Source: Escherichia coli (GTDB lineage: Bacteria > Pseudomonadota > Gammaproteobacteria > Enterobacterales > Enterobacteriaceae). Taken from it: a stretch of 64,000 nt of DNA. The number at the start of each line of letters is the position of its first letter. Position 1 is the stretch's first letter. Below, in pieces: positions 14,654-16,560 of this stretch. The DNA is taken from the NCBI RefSeq assembly GCF_050920415.1, contig NZ_CP169309.1, one strand, 5' to 3'. A program made the position numbers and the translations under genes. The notes under the pieces were generated by a model. That model saw nothing but the letters and a program-made list of their open reading frames with translations, made no database searches and was not told the origin of the DNA.

Positions 14654-14917
14654 TCAGGCGCGGATTTGTTGTGATGTGGTTGTGCTCTGGCAGATGGCAA
14701 CGTGTGCGACGTCCACCAGTTTATTTAACTGACTAAACAGTAAGTCGACCGACCGTGGGCTGGCAACGGTCAATTCGATATTTATATTTTGTGCATCGCT
14801 GGCGGCGGCCATATTCATTGAGCAGACGTGGAAACCACGATGACGCACCACGCGTAAAACACGTTCTAAGGTTTCCGGATTGAAGCGAGCCGATACATTG
14901 ACCTGATGTTGCATCAT
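14654..14917 (-). CDS. ilvM: Acetolactate synthase II small (regulatory) subunit
   Basis: 87-aa [43 protein letters not shown]...; its start overlaps the ilvG stop by 4 nt. Confidence 0.92.
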
Positions 14918-16560
14918 GATAATTTCTCCAACATTTCTGAATTACTGGCGCCAGGCGGCACCAGCGGCCAGACGTTCTCAAGTTCGTCGATTGAGACATG
15001 AAGCAGGTATGGCCCATCACTGTTCAGCATGGTGTCGAGTGCCGCTTCAACCTGGTCTTTACGGGTGATGTGTTGGCCAGGGATGCCGAAGGCGCTGGCT
15101 AACATGAGGAAATCGGGATTATCGGTAAGGGTGGTTTCGCTATATCGTTCCTGGAAAAACAGTTGCTGCCATTGTCGAACCATCCCTAACCGTTGGTTAT
15201 CGAGTAAGACGATTTTCAACGGTAACTGCTTGCGTTTTACGGTGCCCAGCTCTTGCACATTCATCATGAAAGAGCCGTCACCGGAGATACAGACGACGGT
15301 ATCGTTCGGTCGCGCAACTTGCGCACCAACCGCTGCCGGTAAACCAAACCCCATGGTGCCTAATCCGCTTGAAGTGATGAAATTTTCCGGGCGAGTGTGG
15401 ACGATGTGCTGCGCGGCCCACATCTGGTGCTGCCCTACATCTGTGGTTACTACACAATCTTCAGGTTTACGATCCGACAGTTGTTTTAACAACAACGGCG
15501 CGTAGATAGCATCACCGGGATGGTCATAACGCCAGGCGTGTTCACTACGCATTTGTGCGCAGTGTTGCTGCCAGTCATTGATATTTAACGGCTGCTGTAA
15601 CGCAGGCAACAGCGTGTTTAAATCACCCTGTAATGCCACATGTGCCTGACGCAGCTTGTTCATTTCTGCCGGGTCAATATCCATATGGATAACACTGGCG
15701 TGTGGTGCGAAGGTGTTCAGTTTGCCAGTTACCCGGTCATCAAAACGTGCACCCACGGCGATCAACAAGTCACATTCCTGCACCGCAAAGTTCGCCGCTT
15801 TGGTGCCGTGCATCCCCAGCATGCCCAGATAGTACGGATAATCCGCATCAACTGCGCCAAGTCCTTTCAGCGTGCAGGTGGCAGGCATTTTTGTGGCAGA
15901 GAGAAATTCTCGTAATGCAGGAACTGCCTGCGCCATACCCACGCCACCGCCAACGTACAGCATCGGTTTTTGCGCTTTTGCCAACATCTGGCGCGCTTGC
16001 TCGACTTCGGCATGTGGGAAAGTCACTTCGTTTTCAACGGTGGTGAACCAGGGTTCCAGATCGCCGCTGGCTAACTGGATATCTTTTGGGATATCGACCA
16101 AAACCGGACCGGGACGACCTGAGCTGGCAACTTCGAATGCTTCAGCCATGATGCGCGGCAACTCTTCCATAGACTGTACGAGGAAGCTGTGTTTGGTACA
16201 GGCTAATGACAATCCCAGGACATCAACTTCCTGAAATGCGTCGGTGCCGATGAAGGGAGCGGACACCTGACCGGTGATGGCAACAACAGGGATGGAATCT
16301 AACAGTGCGTCCGCAAGCCCAGTTATCAGGTTGGTTGCGCCCGGACCAGATGTGGCGATACATACGCCAGTTTTGCCGGTAGCACGGGCATAACCGATAG
16401 CCGCCATTGCCGCGCCCTGCTCATGCCGGCACAGCAAGTGCTCCACGCCGCCGTCATACAATGCATCGTAAACCGGCATAATTGCGCCACCCGGATAACC
16501 GAAAACGGTATTCACACCTTGTGTCCGCAACGCATGTACCACCCACTGTGCGCCATTCAT
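14914..16560 (-). CDS. ilvG: Acetolactate synthase II large subunit, full-length (uninterrupted)
   Basis: Continuous 548-aa [80 protein letters not shown]... (TPP-enzyme family) with no frameshift. Confidence 0.93.

Follow-up and report, generated by a model that had tools for sequence, protein, structure and literature searches.

Does this chromosome carry a whole gene for the catalytic subunit of acetohydroxyacid synthase (AHAS) II, or the frameshifted ilvG of Escherichia coli K-12, and what would an intact frame mean for the cell? In the window (the entire 64,000-nt stretch of E. coli DNA that was analysed), a six-frame ORF list gives ilvG as a single ORF of 548 amino acids with an ATG start and zero internal stops, and re-translation returns the terminal TGA as the sole stop codon (Table 1). 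The sequence-only reading had described one uninterrupted 548-codon frame overlapping ilvM by 4 nt; its coordinates are exact, the minus strand, which it left unstated, can be added, re-inspection of the gene reveals no internal stop or frameshift, and the four overlapping nucleotides are common to both ORFs. The translated protein scores 1076 bits against the NCBIfam equivalog NF006524 ('acetolactate synthase 2 catalytic subunit'; cut-off 738), and its residues 1-547 cover model positions 1-547 of 548, making the match full length. The N-terminal Pyr, central and C-terminal PP domains of a ThDP enzyme are all present and score far above their Pfam cut-offs. Since a 548-codon open frame matches a curated equivalog over 1-547 of 548 positions, a chance origin is impossible. 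For the identical DNA in NZ_CP169399.1, the RefSeq CDS is an intact ilvG without a pseudogene flag (WP_001012646.1); this accession is a 'MULTISPECIES: Escherichia' entry, and the exact protein is found on 83 contigs. Among solved structures, the nearest to IlvG is the large subunit of E. coli AHAS I, IlvB (PDB 6lpi), which is of the same family and fold class and matches over its full length (E = 7.5e-163) but is a different isozyme and a paralogue of IlvG. No solved E. coli AHAS II structure was found in a PDB search with IlvG. The AHAS I isozyme has IlvN as its partner and is sensitive to valine. We note that the representative of the 90% protein cluster to which this IlvG belongs is a CusA/CzcA efflux protein of Bacteroides (1041 aa), which looks like a database clustering artefact and could mislead searches.

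Table 1 Features of the ilvG locus and its operon, in coordinates of the window.
Feature	Position	Strand	Basis
ilvG, AHAS II (acetolactate synthase 2) catalytic subunit, 548 codons + TGA	14914..16560	-	ORF list, NCBIfam, Pfam, RefSeq
Pfam domains in IlvG: PF02776 (TPP_enzyme_N); PF00205 (TPP_enzyme_M); PF02775 (TPP_enzyme_C)	residues 1-115; 186-321; 374-522		Pfam
Two bases absent from K-12: AT within TTAAATATCAATGAC, codons 326-327 AAT ATC	15583..15584	-	alignment with MG1655
ATGA overlap, ilvG TGA (14916..14914) and ilvM ATG (14917..14915)	14914..14917	-	ORF coordinates, sequence
ilvM, AHAS II small (regulatory) subunit, 87 aa	14654..14917	-	NCBIfam NF008362, Pfam ACT_5
Downstream operon genes: ilvE 13705..14634, ilvD 11790..13640, ilvA 10243..11787	10243..14634	-	ORFs, NCBIfam (ilvE), RefSeq
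ilvX small peptide ORF, immediately upstream of ilvG	16563..16613	-	RefSeq annotation of identical record
Attenuator terminator, hairpin GACCCCCGCACCGAAAGGUCCGGGGG then U8	16644..16677	-	sequence, fold, alignment
ilvL leader peptide, 32 aa, Ile/Val/Leu-rich (MTALLRVISLVVISVVVIIIPPCGAALGRGKA)	16700..16798	-	NCBIfam NF007744, 81.9 bits, cut-off 59
ilv operon 5' leader / UTR RNA	16580..16869	-	Rfam RF02744 (Rev39_5p_UTR), 157 bits vs gathering score 88, full length

The ilvG pseudogene of K-12 occupies the orthologous locus, with identical neighbours (ilvL, ilvX, ilvM and ilvE) and 94.4% nucleotide identity to the window gene, but differs in having lost 2 bp at codons 326/327, with a stop at codon 328. 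The MG1655 copy (NZ_CP025268.1) is annotated 'frameshifted' and measures 1645 nt, and pairwise alignments place a single 2-bp gap opposite window positions 15583-15584, the exact position of the gap being ambiguous inside a short AT/TA repeat. Codons 324-330 of the window gene are CCG TTA AAT ATC AAT GAC TGG (P L N I N D W) and the reading continues, whereas K-12 reads CCG TTA AAT CAA TGA, that is, PLNQ and then the stop; the K-12-type deletion is absent from the window, which has TTAAATATCAATGAC where K-12 has TTAAATCAATGAC. Both the frameshift that had been ascribed to K-12 and the difference that an alignment around its site had been expected to expose are thus seen directly. Each of the four natural alleles examined is 2 bp longer than K-12 ilvG. 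The lesion has been given as 'two separate base pair insertions' (PMC3032704); measured against these four alleles, it is instead a deletion of 2 bp. In adaptive evolution, removal of T or G from the premature TGA restores the K-12 frame, and K-12 with the frame restored grows at 1 mg/ml valine (PMC8605374).

An open frame could accordingly belong to a K-12 derivative with a repaired ilvG, either an ilvG+ or ilvO-type revertant or an engineered repair, and K-12 revertants in which small indels beside the premature stop restore the frame do exist (PMC8605374). The sequence at the site is nevertheless the natural AAT ATC AAT and not a -1 deletion in TGA, and it fits the alleles of UTI89, O157 and RMDEC465, which are intact at 548 codons and 1647 nt. 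Window and K-12 ilvG are moreover separated by 92 substitutions (5.6%) and 13 amino acids, and per-gene identity of the window to K-12 is 92-99%, the flanking genes differing by 1-8%. Over its first 25 kb, the window matches E. coli MFDS1022581 (NZ_CP169399.1), a strain from animal-source food in Gwangju, Korea, at 100% identity, and virtually every other complete E. coli genome at 96.2-96.6%; the value for K-12-type laboratory strains, ~96.4%, is not the near-identity of a K-12 lineage. Because ilvG and its flanking sequence are too divergent from K-12, a repaired K-12 is excluded for practical purposes, and the earlier statement that this chromosome is not a K-12 derivative with the lesion stands.

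Across the species, an intact frame is common. A 52-mer spanning the K-12 junction, designed to offer no 28-nt seed to sequences lacking the deletion (the longest word it shares with the window is 26 nt), is present at at least 99% identity in 340 of 5,426 complete genomes, and every recognisable name among the matches listed is that of a K-12 laboratory derivative (MG1655, W3110, DH10B, BW25113, JM109, MC4100 and others); ~94% of complete genomes are without the junction. When all genomes are sampled at even spacing, the ilvG match spans exactly 1647 nt in 36/36 full-length non-K-12 rows and 1645 nt in all three K-12 rows. Intact ilvG has been described in strains W, B and Crooks (PMC3032704) and again in B, where operon expression is higher than in K-12 (PMC3446290). 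As the sampled non-K-12 rows all measure 1647 nt and the junction is found in 340/5,426 genomes, intact ilvG is the species norm in E. coli, and the broken copy is that of K-12 and its derivatives. The same length bears on whether the open frame might be an assembly or consensus artefact masking a real frameshift. Indel errors are possible in long-read assemblies, although nothing specific favours one here; such errors mostly break frames and seldom mend them, and the 1647-nt length and the local sequence match thousands of independent genomes, leaving this explanation a negligible chance. Wild-type ilvG of B, W, Crooks, UTI89 and O157:H7 resembles the window gene in its 548 amino acids, operon position, ATGA coupling, leader and attenuator, and the IlvG protein is 97-98% identical to the other alleles compared; the window differs from these alleles in its uncommon nucleotide haplotype, through changes that are overwhelmingly synonymous. 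We are highly confident that the window carries the ordinary wild-type gene of a naturally occurring E. coli strain, one encoding a full-length AHAS II catalytic subunit that should be made.

The operon context agrees with that of other E. coli: ORFs, family matches, RefSeq and Rfam give the ilvL leader, ilvG coupled to ilvM, and then ilvEDA. RefSeq orders the region as rho...ilvC, ilvY, ilvA, ilvD, ilvE, ilvM, ilvG, ilvX, ilvL, yifB...rrnC...rbs...oriC region...atp...glmUS, lpf, pst. IlvM scores 133.9 bits against NF008362 ('acetolactate synthase 2 small subunit'; cut-off 68), has an ACT domain by Pfam and, as WP_000983255.1, is identical in K-12, UTI89 and O157; IlvX (WP_001387183.1) is the same protein as in K-12, and IlvL is likewise identical to K-12. 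Folding the leader yields a minimum free energy structure (-71 kcal/mol, z = -4.7) with the expected terminator, and the attenuator is invariant in 5/5 strains aligned. A consensus promoter/terminator scan of 16500-17200 missed both the operon promoter and the attenuator, the latter because its stem has one internal mismatch, which the scan disallows. The Rfam family matched by the leader, RF02744 ('Soft rot Enterobacteriaceae Rev 39 5'UTR'), is evidently the ilvGMEDA leader under another name. Between a point ~60 nt ahead of the ilvL start and the start codon of ilvG (alignment columns 300-622), the window is near-identical to UTI89, O157 and RMDEC465, the exceptions being one or two positions, each a private change of one of those three strains. 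Throughout the leader region, including ilvL, the attenuator, ilvX and the ilvG ribosome-binding site (RBS), all differences between the window and K-12 are private to K-12. Among the K-12-private substitutions are several ~55-65 nt upstream of the ilvL start codon (window 16850..16863), where K-12 has TTGTAC/TATTTAC/AAAACC and the window, UTI89, O157 and RMDEC465 have TTGTGC/TATTCGC/AAAATC. The ilvL stop is TAA in K-12 and TAG in the window (16700).

In this arrangement, ilvG is the first enzyme gene of an ilvL-ilvX-ilvGMEDA operon controlled by leader-peptide attenuation. Its product is the ThDP/FAD/Mg-dependent catalytic subunit of AHAS II, translationally coupled to ilvM through the ATGA overlap. 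AHAS II is the isozyme without feedback inhibition by valine. The K-12 ilvG frameshift is polar on ilvEDA (Lawther 1981 and Parekh & Hatfield 1997, as cited in PMC8605374). Because the ilvG frame is intact, the cell should make AHAS II; the enzyme would be valine-insensitive and would permit growth in the presence of valine, and ilvEDA would probably escape a K-12-type polar reduction of expression.

The protein itself retains the ThDP/Mg-binding motif GDG(27)NQ (residues 427-456) and carries A26, E47, V99, A108, F109, Q110, M250, R276, V375, D428, N455, M460 and W464. These 13 are AHAS II functional residues in the enzymology literature, E47 being the cofactor-activating glutamate and W464 the acceptor-specificity tryptophan. 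The dN/dS of ilvG is 0.04-0.05 against K-12, UTI89 and O157, which indicates strong purifying selection. An open frame does not by itself ensure a working gene: a missense or regulatory defect could leave ilvG silent or its enzyme inactive, in which case AHAS II would not be made; consistent with this are five residues private to the window IlvG among the five strains compared (T13, M131, T316, M337 and S339) and the failure of the consensus scan to recover the promoter. None of the five lies at a site known to be catalytic. The low dN/dS, the intact ThDP motif and the retention of all functional residues checked argue against an inactive enzyme, and the occurrence of the identical protein on 83 contigs argues against a recent inactivating allele. 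The promoter sequence, for its part, is the same as in other natural strains, and the regulatory region matches those strains save for their own private changes. A silent or inactive ilvG is therefore very unlikely. Returning to a functional wild-type gene, we infer that the strain expresses AHAS II, is valine-resistant and is without ilvEDA polarity; expression is expected because the leader, attenuator, ilvX, RBS, IlvM and catalytic residues are conserved or identical. A valine-insensitive acetolactate/acetohydroxybutyrate synthase activity is predicted from orthology together with the K-12 revertant data (PMC8605374).

None of this is new: the family is characterised, the operon canonical and the exact protein already in RefSeq, and the biology is that of textbooks. 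With intact ilvG as the species default, the finding tells little beyond 'not K-12'. A user of the sequence does learn that the strain is not K-12, with predicted valine resistance and non-polar ilvEDA expression, which is useful for the choice of minimal medium or for comparison with K-12 metabolic models.

The nucleotide haplotype of ilvG is uncommon, being at least 98% identical in only 4/5,426 complete genomes and mostly 92-95% identical elsewhere (one genome at at least 99%, and 5,264 at 90-95%). Its closest relative is the allele of RMDEC465 (98.4%), a strain whose yifB is annotated as frameshifted (12889..14410 of that locus); yifB is intact in the window (17150..18670). An unusually divergent or imported ilvG allele was considered and rejected: in a per-gene comparison with K-12, UTI89, O157 and RMDEC465, divergence is just as great throughout the ilv-rep block, also when standard strains are set against each other. 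From gppA and rep through ilvC, ilvY, ilvA, ilvD, ilvE and ilvG (window 3033..16560), dS is 0.2-0.4 against K-12, UTI89 and O157; it is 0.07-0.14 in yifB, mdtD and rbsK on the other side of the block. The proteins of the block are very conserved, IlvE and IlvM being identical. Identity between K-12 and UTI89 is 95.4% in ilvG, 94.5% in ilvA and 94.1% in ilvY, and because the synonymous excess is also seen between these two strains, the block is a region of species-wide high diversity, a regional property that is not specific to ilvG. It is conceivable, though on balance rather unlikely, that recombination has spread ancient, deeply split alleles of this block among E. coli lineages, perhaps with a source beyond E. 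coli sensu stricto; low codon bias or a locally raised mutation rate are alternatives that could also account for its dS.

The stop-codon ends of ilvA and ilvY, two convergent genes, share 4 nt in a tail-to-tail overlap (10243..10246), because a 57-bp insert with a REP-like palindrome (GCCTGATAGCGCTTCGCTTATCAGGC), present between the two genes in K-12 and O157, is absent from the window; ilvY of K-12 and O157 has a different C-terminus and is one codon longer than in the window. Between rep and ppiC lies an intact gene for a PemK/MazF-family toxin of 149 aa (6803..7252, plus strand; Pfam PemK_toxin), and no antitoxin gene is annotated adjoining it. Its K-12 orthologue is annotated as frameshifted and UTI89 is without the gene, making it a second K-12 pseudogene that is whole in the window strain. 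Between glmS and pstS, an lpfA-D operon for O113-type long polar fimbriae (56402..61383, plus strand) is inserted; K-12 is not known to have an lpf operon at this position. The annotation also has a gene of the Bax inhibitor-1/YccA family that lies between atpC and glmU (51761..52459, plus strand). The Rfam StyR-44 match at 23422..23530 (minus strand), directly upstream of the 23S rRNA in the rrn operon, is an expected spacer element.
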